Shown here piece by piece: positions 5,300-63,999 of a stretch of 64,000 nt of DNA (the stretch's first letter is position 1; each line of letters starts with the position of its first letter). Below the pieces are notes generated by a model. The model was not told the origin of the DNA. It saw only the letters and a program-made list of their open reading frames with translations, and made no database searches. Origin of the DNA: Escherichia phage JLBYU50. Position numbers and translations under genes: made by a program. The stretch lies in sequence record OK272470.1, one strand, 5' to 3'.

Positions 5300-8119
5300 A
5301 TGTATCCTATTCCTTTATTTATGTCAACAACATCAGCTTCAGTAGTAACAGCTACATCTATAACCACTTCCTCTATTGGTATTGCAATAGTTGGTAGTAA
5401 AAAGCAACTGACATACACAGTTTCACCGGAAGATGGTGCGTTATTTGATATAGCTTTTTCATCTTCAGATAATACCAAAATGGTTATAGATAATAGTGGT
5501 ATGATGGAGTTTGTTGCCGAAGGTGGTTTTGATGCAATAATGACAGCTAAAAATAATTTAGGTGCTGTCTTAACTGATCAATCTGGTGGTTATGCTTCAG
5601 AATTAAGCGTGTACACTGAAAGTCTATCAGCTATGGATGTAGGCACTACTCAACAGTTGGTTGCTACAATCAGTCCAGAAGGTGCTAAAGATCTTCCAGA
5701 CATGGTAATTACGTACACCACAACAGATCCAGAAGTAGCTACTGTAAGCCCTACAGGATTAATAACTGCTCTTAAAGATGGTAATTGCCGTATAGGTTGT
5801 ACTGCAACTTATCAAGGAACAGTGGTGGCCTCTGATAGTTCTTATTTAGGTGTTAATGCTATTCCTGTTATTTCTAATGTAACAGCCGTGGCAAACAGCT
5901 ATGGAGACGTTCGTGTTGCTTGGGATGTAGCTGATCCGCTAGATGGTGATACTTATACTGTAGAAGTATTAGATTTAAGTAATAATAGTGTTCAGTGGAC
6001 TACAACAACCACGAATACTTACGCTTACTTTGATATCTCTGACTCTATTCCTCTTTATGGGTTTGCTCCAACATACCTTAAAATTAGCGTTAAGAGCACC
6101 AAAGCAGCAGCCGTTATCTTTAATAACTCAATAGCTACAGATGATTCGTTCATTAAAGAAGTTATTGTTTTTGCTGGACAAGATAACGTAAATGCACACT
6201 TTACAGAACTATCTGGTGCAAATAAAGCAGCAATGAGTAGCACAACAGCCCGTAATGCATATGCTACGCAACGTGGTTTAGCAAATGCTGAAGTTCTTCC
6301 GTTAAATACAGCTTCTGGATCATCAGCAGCAGATAAATATGCTGACGATAAAGCTGGAACAGGTACACCAGACAACTACTGGTATGATCTGGATAACACA
6401 GCAGATGGGCCATGCTTAACTAACTTTATCACTAAAGTCACACCTTATGCAAGTAAGGTTAAAGCCATTATTTGGGGACAAGGTGAAAATGATGCTGTAT
6501 CATCATCTTCAACTGTTGCAGGTAGATACAGTAACACTACACGTTACCATGATGCTACGATAGCTATCTTTGATAAGATGCGTACAATAGTTCCTGCTTC
6601 TCAAGCAAAAATTGTTTGGCAGATCCTGGGACGTTCTTATTTATATGGTGTAGAAGTTAATGGTGTGGATTGGCAGAAGTACAGAAATGTACAAAGAACC
6701 ATCTCTACAGCACGTGATGATGTTATCATTGGTTCTTGGGTAGATGGTGCTGAACGTTACAGTGGTTATGTTTATGAAGAAGGTATTGATGGTCGTATCC
6801 ATTATATTTCTTCTGTATACCAAACAGCAGCTACAAAACTTGCTAAATCAGCAGCAGACGGTACAGACCTAACATCAACGTCACCTGTTTGGGTTGATAT
6901 GGCTGTTCCAACTGGAGCAACAGCTACTTCCCAATCTAATCAAGATACAATTTTAGTATGGGATGCTCAAGGCTATAGTAAACACTACTTCCGTAATATT
7001 AACGTCTTAACAGCATCTGTATTAACTGAACAAACGCTTAATACGAACAGCTATACGTTTACCTATGCAGATCAAGTAGAACAATATGGTTTTGCAGCAG
7101 GAACTACTATATTTGATGTTGCATATTATGATGAAGCAAATGATGTGTTATCTCCTTTAGTACGTTTTAATGTTAACGTTACAGCAGGAACCGTAGAAGA
7201 TAAACCTGTAGTGATGGATTATGATTTAACACAAGAAACTCTTCCATCAGATGTTAAGGTTAATGGTGGGAACTCTTTTGCTCGTGCTTCTGGAGATACA
7301 CTTGTAGCCACTAACACCTTGGTTGCTCCGTTGGAGTATGTTGGCACTACCCCTGTAGGTAGACGTGTAACAGCTAACACAGCTACACAAATTTTTGTCA
7401 ACAACGCCTTAACAAGCGCAAGCCCGTGGGTAAAGACCAACTTAACTGTTTCAACTTCATCTGATAAATCTCCGGCTGGAACTACTGCCAATGTATTCAA
7501 ATTAACTCCGACTACAACATCTGGTAGTCATATCTTAACTGCAACATATACTAACGCGTACAACATATATGCCGGACGTAACTGGTCTGCCTCTGTTTTC
7601 TTGAAAGCGAACGGGATTACTAAGGCCAAACTAAGATTAAAAGCAGGAACTGAAGTTAATGAGGGTACTTTTGATTTAGCAGCAGGTACATTTACAGGAA
7701 GTGAAGCTAATATTATATCTATGGGTAACGGTTGGTATCGTGCTATTCTGCATAAAACAGGGATAGCCAAACAGTCCTCCATAAGTTTTGAAATAATTGC
7801 CTTGGATGCAACTGGTGCGGAGATTTTCGCTGGGGATGGTACTAGTAACCTTGCAGTTTGGTTGCCACAGCTTGAAGGTGCTCCTACAGGAGAAACATCA
7901 AAAGCTGGAGCGCCTTATGTCTGCACATATCCTGGAAGTTTAGGAGGAGTATCCTTCACTATACCAAGGAACGGACATACTGGTGTGGATGTTTACTATT
8001 CCAACGGGGACGTTGTTCGTGACGTATTCTCTGGTACGGCATCTACTTGGACAATAAACTACTCCAGCTTGTACGATTGGGGATCAGTCTTTATTACAGG
8101 TTTGAAATATTACGACTAA
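5300..8119 (+). CDS. Tail fibre / adhesin with Big_2 (bacterial Ig-like) domain and possible degenerate SASA/SGNH-esterase-like region
   Basis: 939 aa. Big_2-like segment (VITYTTTDPEVATVSPTGLITALKDGNCRIGCTATYQG). Motifs FAGQDNV and IIWGQGENDA resemble GQSN / QGE(S/N)D blocks of sialate-O-acetylesterase-type domains. Terminator at 8124-8151. Confidence 0.6.
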   Translation: MYPIPLFMSTTSASVVTATSITTSSIGIAIVGSKKQLTYTVSPEDGALFDIAFSSSDNTKMVIDNSGMMEFVAEGGFDAIMTAKNNLGAVLTDQSGGYASELSVYTESLSAMDVGTTQQLVATISPEGAKDLPDMVITYTTTDPEVATVSPTGLITALKDGNCRIGCTATYQGTVVASDSSYLGVNAIPVISNVTAVANSYGDVRVAWDVADPLDGDTYTVEVLDLSNNSVQWTTTTTNTYAYFDISDSIPLYGFAPTYLKISVKSTKAAAVIFNNSIATDDSFIKEVIVFAGQDNVNAHFTELSGANKAAMSSTTARNAYATQRGLANAEVLPLNTASGSSAADKYADDKAGTGTPDNYWYDLDNTADGPCLTNFITKVTPYASKVKAIIWGQGENDAVSSSSTVAGRYSNTTRYHDATIAIFDKMRTIVPASQAKIVWQILGRSYLYGVEVNGVDWQKYRNVQRTISTARDDVIIGSWVDGAERYSGYVYEEGIDGRIHYISSVYQTAATKLAKSAADGTDLTSTSPVWVDMAVPTGATATSQSNQDTILVWDAQGYSKHYFRNINVLTASVLTEQTLNTNSYTFTYADQVEQYGFAAGTTIFDVAYYDEANDVLSPLVRFNVNVTAGTVEDKPVVMDYDLTQETLPSDVKVNGGNSFARASGDTLVATNTLVAPLEYVGTTPVGRRVTANTATQIFVNNALTSASPWVKTNLTVSTSSDKSPAGTTANVFKLTPTTTSGSHILTATYTNAYNIYAGRNWSASVFLKANGITKAKLRLKAGTEVNEGTFDLAAGTFTGSEANIISMGNGWYRAILHKTGIAKQSSISFEIIALDATGAEIFAGDGTSNLAVWLPQLEGAPTGETSKAGAPYVCTYPGSLGGVSFTIPRNGHTGVDVYYSNGDVVRDVFSGTASTWTINYSSLYDWGSVFITGLKYYD

Positions 8120-55303: not shown

Positions 55304-55602
55304 AATGTTTGGAACATTGGCTATAATATAAGCTATCCAATAATAAACATAGTGGATAATGACACTGATGATCATAATGCGCCACCTTCCAGGGGGCGCT
55401 ATGTGAACACAAAAAATCTTTCTTGTCAAGAAAAATATTACCATTATTGCGCAAAATTATTTATATATGAATAGATGGTTTTTCATACTATTATTGTTAT
55501 TTGTCGGGCATAACTATCCCTATTTGTTGAGCCTACTTTCTTAAAAGCGCAATAAATCAGAATTATCTTGATTTTTAGTGAGTTTTATAGTATAGAAAAT
55601 AT

Positions 55603-55621
55603 GCAAATGATAATCATTATC
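55603..55621. promoter_or_regulatory. Near-consensus Fur box
   Basis: GCAAATGATAATCATTATC matches GATAATGATAATCATTATC at 17 of 19 positions. Confidence 0.5.
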
Positions 55622-55788
55622 AGCTATCTTCCACGGGTGGCACTATTTCACGCCAGATCATTTCATTTGGCAAGGTGTATATAGATGTTTAGACTTGCCA
55701 AGCCATTGATTTACTTAGAATTTATCTGTTTTGTTGTGAGTAGTACCTTTCTTGCTCAGAAAATAATCAAAAGTCTTATAAGTCATTG

Positions 55789-55820
55789 AATGATAATGCA
55801 AATGATAATTATTCTCATTG
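55789..55820. promoter_or_regulatory. Overlapping Fur-box-like repeats
   Basis: GAATGATAATGCAAATGATAATTATTCTCATTG: two AATGATAAT half-sites followed by TCTCATT, the partner of the 47.4 kb boxes. Confidence 0.4.
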
Positions 55821-56111
55821 ATATTTGAGGGGGACGGTCGGCAGAAATCGGGGGCGCTGAAAATCGCGTTAAGCACCTCTCGCAAGCGAGCAGTATTTTG
55901 CGGCAAGTTATTGATATTATTGACTTTACGCTTATGAAAAGGGGGCGTGTCGAAATAAATCGGGTATACCGGAAAATTTTTGTGGCATAGATATTTATTT
56001 GTCTATATTATGTACAAAGGGGTGTGTTAAAAATAATAGGTATATATAGAATAATTGATAGGGAAATCCTATACTAAATCCTTCATTAATGATGTTCCTA
56101 TGTTGCTGTTC

Positions 56112-56140
56112 TTGTAACAGATGAAAAGATGCTATATGAT
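56112..56140 (+). promoter_or_regulatory. Candidate promoter (TTGTAA-17-TATGAT)
   Basis: -35 56112-56117, -10 56135-56140, upstream of RBS aaggag and ATG 56178. Confidence 0.35.
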
Positions 56141-56177
56141 GTGTGGCATGAAACGTAAATTTATAAAGGAGTCTGAT

Positions 56178-56543
56178 ATGTGTGTTCCTCTTAGCAGTCC
56201 ACTGCTGTTAGAATTTTACAAAGCATGGATGGAAGATCATTCCTCAATGCATCGTGAGAATGTTGGTTTGTGTATTTGCCTTATGGATTATCTGGCAACC
56301 ACTATGTCAAAGAAAAAGCCTACGCAAGAAGATATAGAACATTTCAAAATGGTTCGTAGCAAAACGCTGGAAGAGATGAAATGGCAATTCACGTGTGCTG
56401 GGTTATCCTCCTTCCTGCCCTTTAATGATGATCTTCTGTGTTATGAAGATGAAGGTAAGAAACATTCTTGCCATACTAACCAAGGAAGATTGCAGTGGGT
56501 GAAAGACAGAATCGAAGATGCAAATAATGCTTGCATTGAATAG
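56178..56543 (+). CDS. Hypothetical protein, paralog family A (member 1)
   Basis: Start at MCVPLSS after RBS aaggag. Shares LL.FY..W......GLC.CL.D.L ... PFN ... RL.WV.DRI with 58467 and 59459 ORFs. Confidence 0.45.
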   Translation: MCVPLSSPLLLEFYKAWMEDHSSMHRENVGLCICLMDYLATTMSKKKPTQEDIEHFKMVRSKTLEEMKWQFTCAGLSSFLPFNDDLLCYEDEGKKHSCHTNQGRLQWVKDRIEDANNACIE

Positions 56544-58466: not shown

Positions 58467-58835
58467 ATGCAAGAGAATAATAAAGTGTGTAACATGAAAA
58501 GCAGCCCCTATTTGCTACAATTTTATGAATGGTGGTTAGAACAAGAAGATACAAACTTTAGCAAAAAGCATTATGGTCTTTGCACGTGTCTTGTAGACTT
58601 CTTGTACAATATTGCTTGGATAAAAGATGTTGAGAATGTAGCAAAGCTCCAATCCTCTGTACGAGAGGAAATGAAGGAACAGTTTAAGAAAGCAGGTTTG
58701 AACCATTTACACCCATTTAATACAGATTTCTCACATTACTTTACGGAAACAGAGCTAGGCATTGCACACCTTAATAAAGAACGTGTACAATGGGTGATTG
58801 ATCGTATTCGTGATATGGAGGAATATAATGGTTAA
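58467..58835 (+). CDS. Hypothetical protein, paralog family A (member 2)
   Basis: 122 aa after RBS aaggagaag. Motifs LLQFYEWW, GLCTCLVDFL, HPFN, RVQWVIDRI. Confidence 0.45.
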   Translation: MQENNKVCNMKSSPYLLQFYEWWLEQEDTNFSKKHYGLCTCLVDFLYNIAWIKDVENVAKLQSSVREEMKEQFKKAGLNHLHPFNTDFSHYFTETELGIAHLNKERVQWVIDRIRDMEEYNG

Positions 58836-59046
58836 GTTTAAAACTTTCTGTGCAATCACTGTTTGTCTTATTCTTGCATACGTGTTATTCTCTGGTATCG
58901 TTCGTTTAGGTGAGTATATGGCAAGAGAAGCTCGTGAAAGCGAAGCTAAAAAAGAACAGTGTATTGTGTTAAAGCATCAAAGGGATGCTGAAAAGTTTCT
59001 CGCACTTGATTGCAATCGTTATGTATCTTATCAAATGTATGAGTAA
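58828..59046 (+). CDS. Small membrane-anchored protein, paralog family B (member 1)
   Basis: Start at MVKFKTF after RBS ggagg. TM helix then EQCIVLKHQRDAEKFL, paralogous to 63540-63764. Confidence 0.4.
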   Translation: MVKFKTFCAITVCLILAYVLFSGIVRLGEYMAREARESEAKKEQCIVLKHQRDAEKFLALDCNRYVSYQMYE

Positions 59047-59055
59047 GGAGGATTT

Positions 59056-59280
59056 ATGGTAAAACGTCTGGAATGGGATGCGTGTACTGCTCACGCTTGT
59101 CACTGTGATATTGTGGAAGATCCTAATGGAGAAATGGTGTATTATGAGGATTACGAAGCATTGCATAATGCTGTGATCGCTTTACTGGATGATATTAGCT
59201 CACGCTATCCAGGACAACAGTTTACGTGTCCACATATCCAACTATTAGCCAAACTTACGGAGTATCCAAGTGTTTCATAA
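59056..59280 (+). CDS. Hypothetical small protein
   Basis: 74 aa after RBS aaggagg. Confidence 0.4.
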   Translation: MVKRLEWDACTAHACHCDIVEDPNGEMVYYEDYEALHNAVIALLDDISSRYPGQQFTCPHIQLLAKLTEYPSVS

Positions 59281-59458
59281 TATGGGTGTCCCTGAACAAC
59301 TCCTCTTTATCGTAGGATTAGTAGGCTTACTGGCGGCTGGCGCTAAAGCCGCTTCTCACACGCATCACATAATGTTAAGATTTCTATTCCTACTCCCTTC
59401 TATCCTCGTACTATTAGTCATACTGATCGATAACATTTTGCACAATTAAGGAGAGGTT

Positions 59459-60043
59459 ATGAGTAAAATTATACCAAGCAGTTATGAATTATTGCAGTTT
59501 TATGTATATTATATAGACTGGGTTAATAGATCGAATGTTAAAGACAATGCGATGTTTAGTAAAAACATATGTTTAACAGAAAGTATCTTCCGTTACTGGC
59601 ACACAGGTAGAAAGTGTACACACAGTGAAGCTATGCGCATTGTAGGAGAATATCTGGAGCAATTGCAAAAAGCAGAGCTACCTGTCCTTCACCCATTCAA
59701 CGAATCTAAAGAAGAATTAGAACAAGAATGTAGGGAAGGTAAGTGCCATTTGAATGAAAAACGTATAGAATGGGTGAGGCAACGTTTAGCCGATGCAGGG
59801 AATCCTCCTAGTGACTCTGACTATACGTGGTATGATGTAGAGGGTTTAGTTCAAGGTTTTGAGGCTTGTGCTATAGATAATACCAACTTTGCCAAAGTTT
59901 TATGCGAGGCTTATGACCTGGCAGATAAAATCCGAAATCACGGATGGAAACAAGAGCATAAAGAATCATATGAACGCCTTGACAAGATTTTCAAACAGAT
60001 CTATTCTAACCACAAGAAGATGTTCCAAATGGAGGATGTGTAA
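59459..60043 (+). CDS. Hypothetical protein, paralog family A (member 3, extended)
   Basis: 194 aa after RBS aaggagagg. Motifs LLQFYVYYIDW, HPFN, RIEWVRQRL. Confidence 0.45.
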   Translation: MSKIIPSSYELLQFYVYYIDWVNRSNVKDNAMFSKNICLTESIFRYWHTGRKCTHSEAMRIVGEYLEQLQKAELPVLHPFNESKEELEQECREGKCHLNEKRIEWVRQRLADAGNPPSDSDYTWYDVEGLVQGFEACAIDNTNFAKVLCEAYDLADKIRNHGWKQEHKESYERLDKIFKQIYSNHKKMFQMEDV

Positions 60044-60729
60044 TGAAAGAGATTATGTTTGAAGGTCATCGTTACGAAGTTCCAGATAATGCGAACTTCA
60101 TGGCTCGTGATATCACTGGAGATGTGTTCTGGTTTGAAGATGAACCTGTATTTTCTTCGAACAAACACTGGTTTTCACAACAATCTTCTTCGGAAAATAT
60201 GACTTTTGGTTATGTAGAACCTAAAGTCCGTTGCAGAGCAGCTTCTTCTTTGGTAAAAATTGCGCAGGATGATCAAGAAAATACTCCAGATGTTGTTAGT
60301 GCACTACTGAAGTACATTGCAGAACTTGAAAATAAAATTAAAGAAGCAGAAACTAAGGTGAAAGCACGATCAGCAATCATTGAATCTATGTCTGAACGTA
60401 TTTTAGAACTAGAAGATTTGTGTGGAGAGGCTTATCAAGTGGTTGGTGCACTGGCTTGTGAAGCAGAAATGTTTGAAACTTCAGAACAAGTTTCACATAT
60501 GTTAGATAATTTGAGTGAATGTAAAATGATTCATGATGATGTATTGCCATTTTGTTGCAATGTTAACAAAACAGAGCAAACAGAAGATTCAGAAACAGTT
60601 TATGTTCCGCTAATGTGTGTTCCAGATCATCTAAAAGGTGTATTCTCTTATAAATGGTCACTGTTGAGCGTTAATAATTGTGGTGAAAACTATTCTGCTA
60701 ACATTGAATTGCTAAAACACGTTAAATAA
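60043..60729 (+). CDS. Hypothetical protein
   Basis: 228 aa, ATG overlapping upstream stop. Confidence 0.45.
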   Translation: MKEIMFEGHRYEVPDNANFMARDITGDVFWFEDEPVFSSNKHWFSQQSSSENMTFGYVEPKVRCRAASSLVKIAQDDQENTPDVVSALLKYIAELENKIKEAETKVKARSAIIESMSERILELEDLCGEAYQVVGALACEAEMFETSEQVSHMLDNLSECKMIHDDVLPFCCNVNKTEQTEDSETVYVPLMCVPDHLKGVFSYKWSLLSVNNCGENYSANIELLKHVK

Positions 60730-60739
60730 GGAGAGTAAG

Positions 60740-61144
60740 ATGTGGTCTGTTAAAATCAAATATAATGCGCAGTATTATGGTGGAAAACCTTACGAAGTTG
60801 TTATTTGTGATTGTATCTCTAAAGAAGTTGCACAGCTTTGTGGCGCTGGTGTTAGTGAAGCTATGAACAAAATGCATAATTCTACTGTGCGTTTCCTGGA
60901 TCGGGATATTCCAGAAGATGTAAATGACTATGGTTACGAAGTTATTTACAGTGAAGGTAAGAAGCTCTCTATTGAAGATGCACTTAAAGCACTACCTGCT
61001 ATGTGCAACCCGACACCAGAAGCAGTTAAAGAGATTTTACCAGAATCCAACCCCGATGAATATGCTTCTATGGTTGCTTCAGATATGTGGAATCTCTGTC
61101 GAGAAACTATGATTAAAAATCTTGTGGAAATGGCACATGAGTAA
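60740..61144 (+). CDS. Hypothetical protein
   Basis: 134 aa after RBS aaggagag. Confidence 0.45.
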   Translation: MWSVKIKYNAQYYGGKPYEVVICDCISKEVAQLCGAGVSEAMNKMHNSTVRFLDRDIPEDVNDYGYEVIYSEGKKLSIEDALKALPAMCNPTPEAVKEILPESNPDEYASMVASDMWNLCRETMIKNLVEMAHE

Positions 61145-61355
61145 AACGCACTTTATACATCCGTTTGATCCAAAGAACAAGGCGGTTATACACCGCCGTT
61201 GGACTGAAACGCGCATTACAAAATGTCCTGTGCCAGCAGCACAGGAATATAACAAAACATATAAAGCAGAATTTGTGGAGTATACCTTTGTGAATAACAA
61301 AGGGAAGGAGGTTTATGTTCCAGAATACTGCCTTTGGATAAAATGGGAGGAATAA
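61122..61355 (+). CDS. Hypothetical protein
   Basis: 77 aa ORF overlapping upstream 3' end. Confidence 0.4.
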   Translation: MWKWHMSKTHFIHPFDPKNKAVIHRRWTETRITKCPVPAAQEYNKTYKAEFVEYTFVNNKGKEVYVPEYCLWIKWEE

Positions 61356-61522
61356 TGCAAGCATTTTTTATCGACAAGTTCAACAAAAATATGAACACGT
61401 GGATGGCAACATTCACTATGCAATTTGCGTCGTTTAAAGAAGCTCAAGAATGGTGCGATCAACACAAGGATTTTGATTTTTACTATCAAGTAAATCTAAA
61501 TCTCTCTTCAGAGGAGAAATAA
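61355..61522 (+). CDS. Hypothetical small protein
   Basis: Start at MQAFFIDKF (TAATG overlap) after RBS gggagg. Confidence 0.35.
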   Translation: MQAFFIDKFNKNMNTWMATFTMQFASFKEAQEWCDQHKDFDFYYQVNLNLSSEEK

Positions 61523-61523
61523 T

Positions 61524-61868
61524 ATGTTGGCTGATATTGAAATCCTTATGTACCGACAAGGTATGATCAAAATGTGGCTAGATTCTTTTAGTAACATATA
61601 CTCCACAGTACGATCAGCAGATGAGCGTAAAACGCTTATTTTATCTGCTATTGTTGATAAACAACGTTTCTTCAAGGAAATTTTACAAACAGGCTTCTCC
61701 GATGCAGGAGTAGAGATTGCAACTCTTAGTCTTGGGGTGCTGTCTTACTTGGAATCCGTTGTTTTATATGTCTTCTCTTTAGAAGAACACTTGCAATTTG
61801 AAGCATTAAAACTTATCTTAGATGCTGCAATTGATATAGAACAAAATCGAATTGATTCTTTTGAATAA
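61524..61868 (+). CDS. Hypothetical protein
   Basis: 114 aa after RBS gaggag. Confidence 0.4.
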   Translation: MLADIEILMYRQGMIKMWLDSFSNIYSTVRSADERKTLILSAIVDKQRFFKEILQTGFSDAGVEIATLSLGVLSYLESVVLYVFSLEEHLQFEALKLILDAAIDIEQNRIDSFE

Positions 61869-61884
61869 AGATAAGGAGAAAACT

Positions 61885-62343
61885 ATGCAAGAGGTTAAAC
61901 ATTATCCACATGGTCGTAGTTTTGTAGCTGTATGGCATGTTCCTGCTCGTAATGAACTGTTTTGCGCATCTTTTCATTACAAAGATGGACAATATTTCAC
62001 CTATGACGAGACGATGGATGATTTTATCCCAGAGTGCGATCATGGGTATACACCAATGTTCTTTAAACGTATGAAAGCTCGTTTCTTCGTTACAGATGTT
62101 GATGGTGAACCTACTTGGCATATCGAAGAAGATTGGCAAGATTCTGTGGATATTAAAGAAGCCCCAGAATGGGCTACATTACTGGTACACGTCAAAACCC
62201 CTACTCTTGACGTTATGGCGTGGGTTAATCATGATGATACCCATTACCAATACATAAATGGTAGCACAGAGATTTCTGGTGAGATTATTGGTCGTTGGAA
62301 GCCTACGAATCAGGTTGCTATTGTCGGGTATAAGACAGTATAA
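61885..62343 (+). CDS. Hypothetical protein
   Basis: Start at MQEVKHY after RBS aaggag. Confidence 0.45.
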   Translation: MQEVKHYPHGRSFVAVWHVPARNELFCASFHYKDGQYFTYDETMDDFIPECDHGYTPMFFKRMKARFFVTDVDGEPTWHIEEDWQDSVDIKEAPEWATLLVHVKTPTLDVMAWVNHDDTHYQYINGSTEISGEIIGRWKPTNQVAIVGYKTV

Positions 62344-62344
62344 T

Positions 62345-62539
62345 ATGAAAAATAGTGTAGATTGGGATGATTTATCCGATTTTGAAAAATGGTTCTTAGG
62401 TAGTGGTTGTTATGCAGATGGGGATCTCGAAAGAGATCCCTCTGGAAACTACACTATGCCATTAACCCAAGGTTTTTATGAGTGCTGGTGCGCAGCACAA
62501 AACAACGTACTGAATAAGGAGACAACACAATGCAATTAA
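62345..62539 (+). CDS. Hypothetical small protein
   Basis: Start at MKNSVDWDD (TAATATG junction). Confidence 0.35.
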   Translation: MKNSVDWDDLSDFEKWFLGSGCYADGDLERDPSGNYTMPLTQGFYECWCAAQNNVLNKETTQCN

Positions 62540-62769
62540 ACATCGGACAACCAATTTTTGATGCAGATACTGGTCAATATGCAGTGATTGTTGCTCGTAT
62601 GAGCGGTGATGACCTTATTGTTTCAGAACTACTCGGATCAGATCCGCAACTCCGCGTAGTATGTGACCTATATCTTCGAGACGAAAGTGATCGCATTGCA
62701 CTGAAAGAAGATGGTATGCTCTACTACACCTGGACTAGAGATCCTGGGGTAACGGAGGTAGAGGTATAA
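62530..62769 (+). CDS. Hypothetical small protein
   Basis: 79 aa after RBS aaggag. Confidence 0.4.
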   Translation: MQLNIGQPIFDADTGQYAVIVARMSGDDLIVSELLGSDPQLRVVCDLYLRDESDRIALKEDGMLYYTWTRDPGVTEVEV

Positions 62770-63056
62770 TGGTAAGGAATAGGGGTTTACATAAAAGAAG
62801 ACACCTTACTTACTGGCATCGTAAAGTACATGAACCTGTATCAAAGAAAGAATGGCAATATCTGCCTTATGGGAAGGAGCGAAGAAAGTATCTGTTAGCT
62901 CACTTAAGGGTACATGGTTCTCTTCCTGTTAACAGTAAGTGGCAATTGCAAACAGCTTATGACGAAGATATGAAATATCTGTTAAAGAGAGGCATTATTT
63001 GCCTTGTTAAGATAGGACGATGGAAATCTCGTCAATCTTATATCGTACTTAAATAG
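62769..63056 (+). CDS. Hypothetical basic protein
   Basis: 95 aa, Lys/Arg-rich (HKRRHLTYWHRKVH). Confidence 0.4.
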   Translation: MVRNRGLHKRRHLTYWHRKVHEPVSKKEWQYLPYGKERRKYLLAHLRVHGSLPVNSKWQLQTAYDEDMKYLLKRGIICLVKIGRWKSRQSYIVLK

Positions 63057-63064
63057 GAGAAACC

Positions 63065-63316
63065 ATGAATATCAAAGATGTTGTAGCATACGTAGAAGAT
63101 GAAGTTAAAAAACATACAAGTTTATTGAAAGTAATGGTTGTGGTTAAAGATGGTATTGGACAAGTAAACGTACAACATGTCTTATCTGACACTGTATATA
63201 ATGTGTTTGAATGTAAAGAAACACCTCATGGAGTACGTGTGGTTTATATTGATAACAATTTCAAAGAATGTGTGAGACATACCTTAAAAAATGAACTAAG
63301 GATCACAATCTTATGA
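63065..63316 (+). CDS. Hypothetical protein
   Basis: 83 aa after RBS aggag. Confidence 0.4.
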   Translation: MNIKDVVAYVEDEVKKHTSLLKVMVVVKDGIGQVNVQHVLSDTVYNVFECKETPHGVRVVYIDNNFKECVRHTLKNELRITIL

Positions 63317-63539
63317 GTTATTATGTTGTACCTTATGCCAATAAGTGGAGAGTAAGAGAAACTTGTTTTCTATTCTCCTGGTGGGCTACGTTCGGAGATG
63401 GTTGTGGAAATGATACAGGAAAGCCTGTAGAGTACGACACAAAAGAAGAATGTGAACAGTGGATAAAATTAACACAAAGATGTTGACACGATCTTAACTT
63501 CTTGTTAGTATCAATGTGTACTAACGATAAGGAGGGTTT

Positions 63540-63764
63540 ATGAAGTCTGTAAACAAGTTGCAACAATTTTTGTTATCAACAGCAATCTTTTTGCTTTTGT
63601 TAATTGGTATTCTGTATGGTGCATCTAACTTATACAATCTACATAATGATGTAGAACAGAATAAAGAGAAGTGCATCATTCTAAAACACAAGAAACAAGC
63701 AGAAGATTTCTTAAAGAATAAGTGTTACAACTACATTGATTATGAGGAGACAAACAATGATTAA
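63540..63764 (+). CDS. Small membrane-anchored protein, paralog family B (member 2)
   Basis: 74 aa after RBS aaggagg. TM helix then EKCIILKHKKQAEDFL. Confidence 0.4.
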   Translation: MKSVNKLQQFLLSTAIFLLLLIGILYGASNLYNLHNDVEQNKEKCIILKHKKQAEDFLKNKCYNYIDYEETNND

Positions 63765-63999
63765 AGAATTAGGTATGCGAGTATACAGTGAGTGGACTCC
63801 AAGCAATGGCCCAGGAGTTGTTGCAGCTAAATGTATCAATGGTCGTATTGAGTACCTGGAAGGGTATGAAGATAATGAAGAGTTAGTAGATTATGCTAAA
63901 TCTTTTATTGAAGATGATACAGACTTTATTGTATTATATGACACAGGAGAGTTAGAGTATGGATATGATGGAGATGGGGATATCTTTGAACTTCAGTAA
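63757..63999 (+). CDS. Hypothetical acidic protein
   Basis: Start at MIKELGMRVY after RBS gaggag. Confidence 0.4.
   Translation: MIKELGMRVYSEWTPSNGPGVVAAKCINGRIEYLEGYEDNEELVDYAKSFIEDDTDFIVLYDTGELEYGYDGDGDIFELQ

Follow-up and report, generated by a model that had tools for sequence, protein, structure and literature searches.

We analysed a 64,000-nucleotide (nt) stretch of Escherichia phage JLBYU50 (sequence record OK272470.1), referred to here in its entirety as the window, and describe two small genes in it, B1 and B2, whose products almost certainly form a real paralogous family, as judged by sequence comparison. Both have a hydrophobic N-terminal segment followed by a short tail that carries a conserved pair of cysteines. 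A first-pass annotation had proposed such a pair of genes, and the two open reading frames (ORFs) lie on the + strand where it placed them and contain the motifs it quoted. The elements of the two genes are as follows:

58828-59046, + strand: B1 coding sequence (CDS), 72 amino acids (aa), orthologue of Phi92_gp007, phrog_15662.
58843-58902, + strand: B1 hydrophobic helix, residues 6-25, a predicted signal-anchor.
58954-59031, + strand: B1 conserved core, residues 43-68 (E43, C45, K49, A54, F57, L58, C62, Y65, Y68).
63540-63764, + strand: B2 CDS, 74 aa, orthologue of Phi92_gp022, phrog_23204.
63567-63623, + strand: B2 hydrophobic segment, residues 10-28, a predicted signal peptide or signal-anchor.
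63666-63743, + strand: B2 conserved core, residues 43-68, to which B1 numbering applies (C45, C62).

Composition-adjusted BLASTP aligns B1 and B2 with 15/31 identities (E-value 4e-10). When phmmer was run against all six frames of the window (1306 segments), B1 and B2 matched only one another (E 2.3e-8 and 2.7e-8), and neither this search nor a hidden Markov model (HMM) of the family finds a third copy in any of the six frames of the window, the next-best match having an E-value of ~1. Aligned by Smith-Waterman, the tails alone score 90, compared with 22.3 +/- 4.6 for 5000 composition-preserving shuffles (z-score 14.7), and none of the shuffles reaches 90. Each protein also matches the PHROG profile of the other, with E-values of 4.9e-7 and 1.5e-8. 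The hydrophobic N-terminal segments, whose Kyte-Doolittle 19-mer means are 2.55 (B1) and 2.41 (B2), are similar at the level of composition only (z = 0.0). The proposed paralogy thus stays significant once composition is corrected for, and hydropathy and the core alignment bear out the proposed order, a transmembrane (TM)-like helix and then a soluble motif common to both. That non-coding ORFs match here by chance or composition would fit the mere 31 residues of alignment but is so improbable as to be negligible, given the shuffling result, the reciprocal unique matches and PHROG cross-matches, the recovery of the same invariant residues from 1.84 billion proteins, and a ratio of nonsynonymous to synonymous substitution rates (dN/dS) of 0.17-0.18 in the cores.

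B1 and B2 are real genes. Both are annotated as CDS in every annotated relative examined, and their products are 96-100% identical to hypothetical proteins of Justusliebigvirus phages and match their PHROGs along their full length (B1 to phrog_15662, E 5.9e-38, residues 1-72; B2 to phrog_23204, E 1e-49, residues 1-74). All annotated relatives start B1 at the ATG at 58828 and not at the upstream TTG at 58798. The signals preceding the two genes are:

58817-58821, + strand: GGAGG, ribosome-binding site (RBS) of B1, 6 nt before the ATG and within the upstream gene.
63483-63511, + strand: sigma-70-like promoter-like site upstream of B2, TTGACA-17-TAGTAT with TG before the -10 element.
63529-63535, + strand: AAGGAGG, RBS of B2, 4 nt before the start and annotated as an RBS in phi92.

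The exact GGAGG precedes B1 in 8/9 Justusliebigvirus genomes, with GGAGA in PHB05, and is likewise an annotated RBS in phi92. B2 follows an intergenic gap, the one such gap of any size in this area, which holds the promoter-like site and the AAGGAGG, both of which are identical in 9/9 genomes, including that of VEcB. The promoter-like site is a consensus match only, as the promoter scan overall was not enriched over shuffles. Pooled over all pairs of the nine Justusliebigvirus genomes, dN/dS over the whole gene is 0.43 (B1) and 0.33 (B2), and from codon 41 to the end it is 0.18 and 0.17, respectively. The N-terminal helix shows very few changes of either kind, synonymous or nonsynonymous. The cores of both genes are under purifying selection, and this selection is concentrated on the tail.

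We used several searches to delimit the family to which B1 and B2 belong, here called family B. Searched exhaustively with an HMM, 1.84 billion cluster representatives yielded 18 clusters (E <= 1e-3) with lengths of 54-131 aa, most of them 61-83 aa, and the matches of a word-indexed profile search are all Stephanstirmvirinae proteins. Searching 50,697 phage records with tblastn revealed three groups: Justusliebigvirus, which has the B1 and B2 types together; Phapecoctavirus, which has one B1-like gene (the phAPEC8 type); and Klebsiella phages with a further type, one copy of which is frameshifted. The B2 type was found in Justusliebigvirus-like records only, and these have two matching places each, versus one in Phapecoctavirus. 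A scan of IMG/VR gave only 4 loci and added one lineage, L017. By these profile matches, phrog_15662 and phrog_23204, known so far as separate and unannotated, are one family together with the phAPEC8 type, the Klebsiella-phage type and ~12 metagenomic lineages, and this family is small, rare and phage-restricted. Its distribution appears to be limited to large phages akin to the Stephanstirmvirinae. The larger contigs that encode it are 148-157 kb long, and the remaining fragments are 1.5-53 kb. In the contexts examined, family-B genes always stand in arrays of small same-strand genes.

An alignment of 20 sequences shows E43, C45, L58 and C62 to be invariant, and K49, A54 and F57 nearly so. 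In all 21 full-length members, B1 and B2 included, the tail contains two cysteines, never more or fewer, and the spacing between them is always 16 residues. The resulting core signature, E-x-C-[IV]-x-x-K-x(4)-A-x(2)-F-L-x(3)-C, is present in both B1 and B2. His50, which was part of the motif quoted in the first-pass annotation, is Tyr or Gln in many members. A typical member begins with Met and one or two Lys/Arg residues, followed by a strongly hydrophobic stretch of 19-30 residues, a charged linker of 8-19 residues and the core; the soluble tail of B1 and B2 is 46-47 residues long.

Some members depart from this pattern. One metagenomic phage contig carries a tandem pair of family-B genes (L007 5759-6001 and 6001-6213), the first of which (L007a) encodes a 15-residue N-terminal tail before the helix and an acidic flank on the C-terminal side of it. 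In Klebsiella phage KP2025 (L005 2436-2644) the gene is frameshifted between helix and tail, and the annotated CDS starts from an internal GTG; the split gene is either a pseudogene or a sequencing error. An intact Klebsiella version is present in phage phi1_175008 (L004 2489-2698). The Klebsiella and P0046 variants have LVVC and LVGC before the tail, but we set aside a lipoprotein reading of these motifs, which are absent in other members.

The 8 kb surrounding B1 and B2 share 96-97.5% identity with numerous Escherichia phages assigned to Justusliebigvirus, a genus of phi92-like myophages of ~146 kb in the Stephanstirmvirinae, and by this identity the window is from a Justusliebigvirus (phi92-like) E. 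coli myophage. Window positions 55530-56091 match phi92 bases 1-565 at 98% identity, and the left direct terminal repeat of phi92 corresponds to 55530-55872; in the phi92 record, the B1/B2 region lies directly after this repeat. A physical genome end is thus probably located inside the window, which would make the assembly permuted. If the termini are the same as in phi92, the distance from the left physical end is ~3.3 kb to B1 and ~8 kb to B2. Between 56 and 64 kb, the window contains 25 small, tightly packed genes, all on one strand. None of these 25 genes has a PHROG of known function as its top match, the annotated matches being weak or secondary only (goF, Lar-like), and the genes of relatives across the B1/B2 region are all annotated as hypothetical. 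In the literature we found no functional, transcriptomic or proteomic work on the B1/B2 genes, and no transcript or proteome data for their phage group.

The structure predicted by AlphaFold2 (AF2) from an 11-sequence alignment (predicted local distance difference test (pLDDT) 85.7, predicted template modelling score (pTM) 0.45) shows one long helix (residues 2-50) that leads through a turn into a short one at 54-59, with the end of the chain less confident. In the alignment, the conserved hydrophobic positions 45/46/48, 54/57/58 and 62/65/66 have helical spacing. Foldseek matched family members only in BFVD and nothing in the PDB. We rejected an intramolecular zinc site in the tail: His50 is not conserved, and the only invariant potential ligands are the two cysteines. 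As there is no invariant metal ligand beyond the Cys pair, a disulfide is favoured over such a site.

The flanks of the hydrophobic segment give an indication of its orientation. In 16/21 members the N-flank carries a higher net charge than the first 15 residues of the C-flank, in 1 further member the two are tied, and several C-flanks are strongly acidic (e.g. ESEPDDDQRTE in P0043). The depositors of the phi92 record report a SignalP 3.0 signal peptide of 27 residues with a probability of 0.985 for gp022, the B2 orthologue, and none for gp007, the B1 orthologue. The fixed-spacing Cys pair without another metal ligand, the signal-like N-terminus and the selection on the tail lead us to propose an N-in/C-out protein whose tail would be a helical binding module stapled by C45-C62. 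It is reasonably probable, on these sequence features, that the tail is periplasmic and C45-C62 disulfide-bonded.

We propose the following mechanism. B1 and B2 would be expressed as part of the early gene array, which occupies the left end of the phi92-like genome, and the N-terminal hydrophobic helix would insert the protein with its N-terminus in the cytoplasm. B1 would remain signal-anchored in the inner membrane, while B2 may be cleaved and released. The ~46-residue C-terminal tail would thereby reach the periplasm, where the C45-C62 disulfide would staple a small helical hairpin on a conserved hydrophobic core (C/I/L, A/F/L, C/Y/V). This mini-domain would be the functional part and would bind a conserved periplasm-exposed partner, and the two subfamilies in a single genome would provide two specificities. 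An exported or inner-membrane-anchored, disulfide-stapled periplasmic mini-domain with an envelope-level role is the best explanation of the data as a whole, but we hold it tentatively and with somewhat less than even confidence. Among specific roles, we rate superinfection exclusion or host-envelope takeover as likeliest, since the position at the DNA-entry end and the architecture resemble those of T4 Sp, Imm and RI; by this analogy, such a role is possible, at low confidence. A bolder and rather doubtful version is that family B is an unrecognised class of DsbA-dependent, disulfide-stapled periplasmic mini-effectors, made right after DNA entry, which would bind a conserved envelope target, belonging to the host or to the incoming phage. 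At least two specificities per genome (the B1 and B2 types here, the tandem pair in L007) would then make up a new mechanism of superinfection exclusion or envelope takeover.

Some points weigh against this proposal. The number of Lys and Arg residues in the C-flank equals or exceeds that in the N-flank in most members, and this plain count leaves the topology ambiguous. By net charge, four members have the more positive C-flank, in each case by one charge. The proposed role, moreover, is an analogy drawn from architecture and genome position, the family having no significant match to any annotated one.

The Lys/Arg count, together with three members that have no N-terminal positive charge, would fit the opposite topology. 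With the N-terminus outside, or with a very short N-tail, the C-terminus would be cytoplasmic and the conserved tail a membrane-tethered adaptor for a cytoplasmic partner, possibly sharing with it a metal site formed with the two cysteines. A candidate partner is the product of the gene that precedes B1:

58467-58835, + strand: family-A gene, 122 aa, phrog_2510, ending 8 nt into B1.

Family A (phrog_2510/27059) has no TM segment or signal sequence; it has the motif LLxFY...GLCxCL...PFN...HLNxxRxxWV, and a Cys and a His are conserved in it. The window contains three copies, at 56121-56543, 58467-58835 and 59459-60043 (all phrog_2510, mutual E 1e-24 to 8e-8), and the early regions of the other phages likewise hold multiple copies, up to six in a row in L024 (543-3010). 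Further family-A loci are found at L019 3326-5046 and in L020 and L025. A protein search with family A gave one near-identical cluster only, AF2 reached a pLDDT of 50 from a shallow 4-sequence alignment, and a Crl-like identity was rejected, its E-values of 0.013-0.09 falling far short of cut-offs. The 8-nt overlap with B1, ATGGTTAA, has counterparts elsewhere: overlaps of a B1-type gene with a family-A gene recur in several lineages, and their order varies, with A before B in the window, phAPEC8 (L003 2085-2399 / 2390-2590), L024 and L026, and B before A in L008 and L017.

Overlapping pairs in six lineages made a functional link between the two families attractive at first, but the link is unproven once the copies of family A are counted: immediate A-B adjacency is seen 6 times versus 3.7 expected from copy numbers (P = 0.12), or 5 versus 3.6 without the non-independent phAPEC8 case (P = 0.26). 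The apparent A-B module is explained by the abundance of family A. A functional link is possible, and a linked two-gene unit is not demonstrated. There is also no family-A gene near B2 or near the family-B genes of L004, L006 and L007, which counts against the adaptor hypothesis. Net charge, the strongly acidic C-flanks and the depositors' SignalP call for gp022 argue for an N-in orientation and export instead, and a strictly invariant Cys pair without another ligand is more typical of a disulfide. We therefore consider the opposite topology unlikely.

The disulfide-stapled periplasmic tail also has to be weighed against the possibility that family B consists of membrane-active peptides, either Hok/Gef-like toxins or holin/antiholin-like lysis timers, in which the helix would be the effector and the tail would modulate it. 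A size of ~70 aa, one N-terminal helix and a short Cys-bearing tail on the far side of the membrane fit this idea, and several copies per genome and the L007 tandem pair are compatible with it. Conservation and purifying selection, however, are found in the tail, whereas the helices are unalignable beyond composition and, by hydropathy, strongly hydrophobic, which argues against releasable signal-anchor-release (SAR) domains. No Hok/Gef, holin or antiholin family was matched in Pfam or PHROGs, and the genes lie among early genes at the genome end, where the neighbours match no known-function PHROG apart from a secondary match to goF. We regard a membrane-active role as distinctly improbable.

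The relationship between B1 and B2 appears to be old. The best non-orthologue matches of B1 are L017, P0035, P0038, P0037 and the phAPEC8 protein, with B2 ranking only 18th of the 21 family members, and the nearest non-orthologue of B2 is P0036, from a 151.5 kb metagenomic phage. B1 ranking B2 so low and B2 lying nearest to a protein of another phage point to an ancient duplication or a separate acquisition and not to a recent duplication within the genome. By these rankings, B1 and B2 belong to different old subfamilies and diverged anciently.

The first-pass annotation had further suggested that each family-B gene directly follows or overlaps a gene of the family-A region and that the two make up duplicated two-gene units. 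The first part holds for B1, by its overlap with 58467-58835, and fails for B2: the 57-aa gene upstream of B2 (63313-63486) is not a family-A gene by BLASTP (E 0.13), the family-A HMM (no match) or hhalign (probability 0.2%), and it belongs to another PHROG. The second part does not stand. The genes downstream of B1 (59056-59280) and B2 (63757-63999) are also unrelated (E 0.07), which leaves neither pair of neighbours homologous, and adjacency of the two families is at chance level. A two-gene unit duplicated within the genome would account for the family-A overlap at B1 and for faint 25-nt DNA echoes, 72-80% identical, between the 3' end of 63313-63486 and the 3' ends of family-A genes, but the dissimilar neighbours and the age of the two subfamilies make it very improbable.

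The history of the B2 locus in phage VEcB argues against such a unit as well. The 11-bp direct repeat CAAAGATGTTG is found twice, at window positions 63073-63083 and 63475-63485 (0.1 expected). In VEcB (L012 ~7170-7245), the 402 bp between the CAAAGATGTTG copies are gone, deleted exactly at the repeat, and from these end points the deletion is attributable to recombination between the two copies. Both genes that precede B2 (orthologues of 63065-63316 and 63313-63486) were lost with it, and a short fused frame remains in their place. The loss left B2 itself and the promoter-like site before it untouched.

Several other features of the array deserve description. The gene directly after B2 in 8/8 annotated relatives is:

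63757-63999, + strand: 80 aa, phrog_23012, overlapping the B2 stop by 8 nt.

This gene and 62530-62769 match one distant-phage protein (L007 3817-4071; E 5.7e-9 and 1.6e-12, respectively) and have no direct match to each other; through this common match, they are probably a further remote paralogue pair in the array. The gene after B1, 59056-59280, encodes a Cys/His-rich protein of 74 aa (CTAHACHC...), which has a weak match to a Lar-like restriction alleviation PHROG (phrog_3592, E 8.7e-4) besides its own PHROG of unknown function. It is followed at 59282-59449 by a 55-aa ORF with two hydrophobic stretches and no PHROG match. For gp009, its orthologue in phi92, the annotation notes 'bad prodigal statistics' and a weak SignalP call, and the ORF is either another small membrane protein near B1 or no gene. 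At 56092-56488 the window contains ~400 bp that phi92 lacks, and these hold most of the additional family-A gene 56121-56543. No Rfam family was matched in 54-64 kb, and the DNA repeats in that interval are short and chance-like only.

The observation on B1 and B2 is correct, statistically solid and fairly ordinary. Its interest lies in the early regions of large lytic coliphages, which are almost wholly unannotated: two separate hypothetical PHROGs are joined into one well-delimited family that has a sharp signature (E-x-C, 16 residues, C) and a topology that can be tested. Should the tail bind a partner in the periplasm, family B could account for exclusion, or for remodelling of the envelope, by phages of the phi92/phAPEC8 type, which are in use in phage therapy collections; otherwise it is an ordinary, though well-defined, orphan family. 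There is value in the negative outcome as well, as the apparent A-B module reflects the abundance of family A and is not a demonstrated linked unit.

Comparison with known systems gave no homologue: nothing in Pfam, NCBIfam, PADLOC, annotated PHROGs or the PDB matches family B significantly, apart from a borderline match of the family profile to L-selectin (E 0.005). This match covers residues 39-62 of B1/B2 and aligns their cysteines to the C2-C3 disulfide pair of the lectin (KEDCvEIYIKRNKDAGKWNDDAC). We judged it to be chance: Pfam Lectin_C is matched by 0/20 members, no other C-type lectin chain in the PDB was matched, and the ~30 matching residues compare with a domain of 120 residues. The family-B tail, moreover, has ~46 residues and 2 cysteines, versus four in the lectin domain, and AF2 predicts helices where the lectin has strands.

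The i-spanins (Rz-like) are type II proteins with a periplasmic coiled coil of ~100 aa and an embedded or adjacent lipoprotein partner. We rejected this identity, since the tail of B1/B2 is only 46-47 residues long, no spanin PHROG was matched and the genes lie in an early array. Hok/Gef type I toxins, of ~50 aa with an N-terminal TM helix and a periplasmic Cys-containing tail, share with family B the bitopic architecture and the short Cys-bearing tail. They differ in that family B is conserved in the tail and not in the helix and has two invariant cysteines versus one, and 0/20 family-B members match Pfam Hok/Gef at E <= 10. The T4 RI-type antiholin has a weakly hydrophobic, releasable SAR N-terminus and a cognate holin with a periplasmic domain. 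Family B has no sequence match to it among the PHROGs, and the strongly hydrophobic helices of B1 and B2 argue, by hydropathy only, against a SAR domain.

Other parallels are in architecture. The small inhibitors of host cell division of the SPO1 gp56 type, from a phage of a Gram-positive host, are bitopic products of early phage genes with a single N-terminal TM helix and a short extracytoplasmic tail, which would bind a membrane protein of the host, a layout like that of B1 and B2; the parallel is one of architecture only. T4 Spackle (Sp), Imm and RI are small products of early phage genes; exported or anchored in the membrane, they act in the periplasm, in superinfection exclusion or as an antiholin. 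Exclusion by Sp and Imm works by blocking the DNA entry or the tail lysozyme of a superinfecting phage. Family B resembles them in size class, in its N-terminal signal or anchor, in the short predicted helical periplasmic part and in early position. PHROGs and Pfam show no sequence relationship to these proteins, and no annotated PHROG or Pfam match places B1 or B2 in the Sp or Imm families; the C-x16-C core is specific to family B. By architecture, B1 and B2 would thus belong with the small early envelope proteins of phages.

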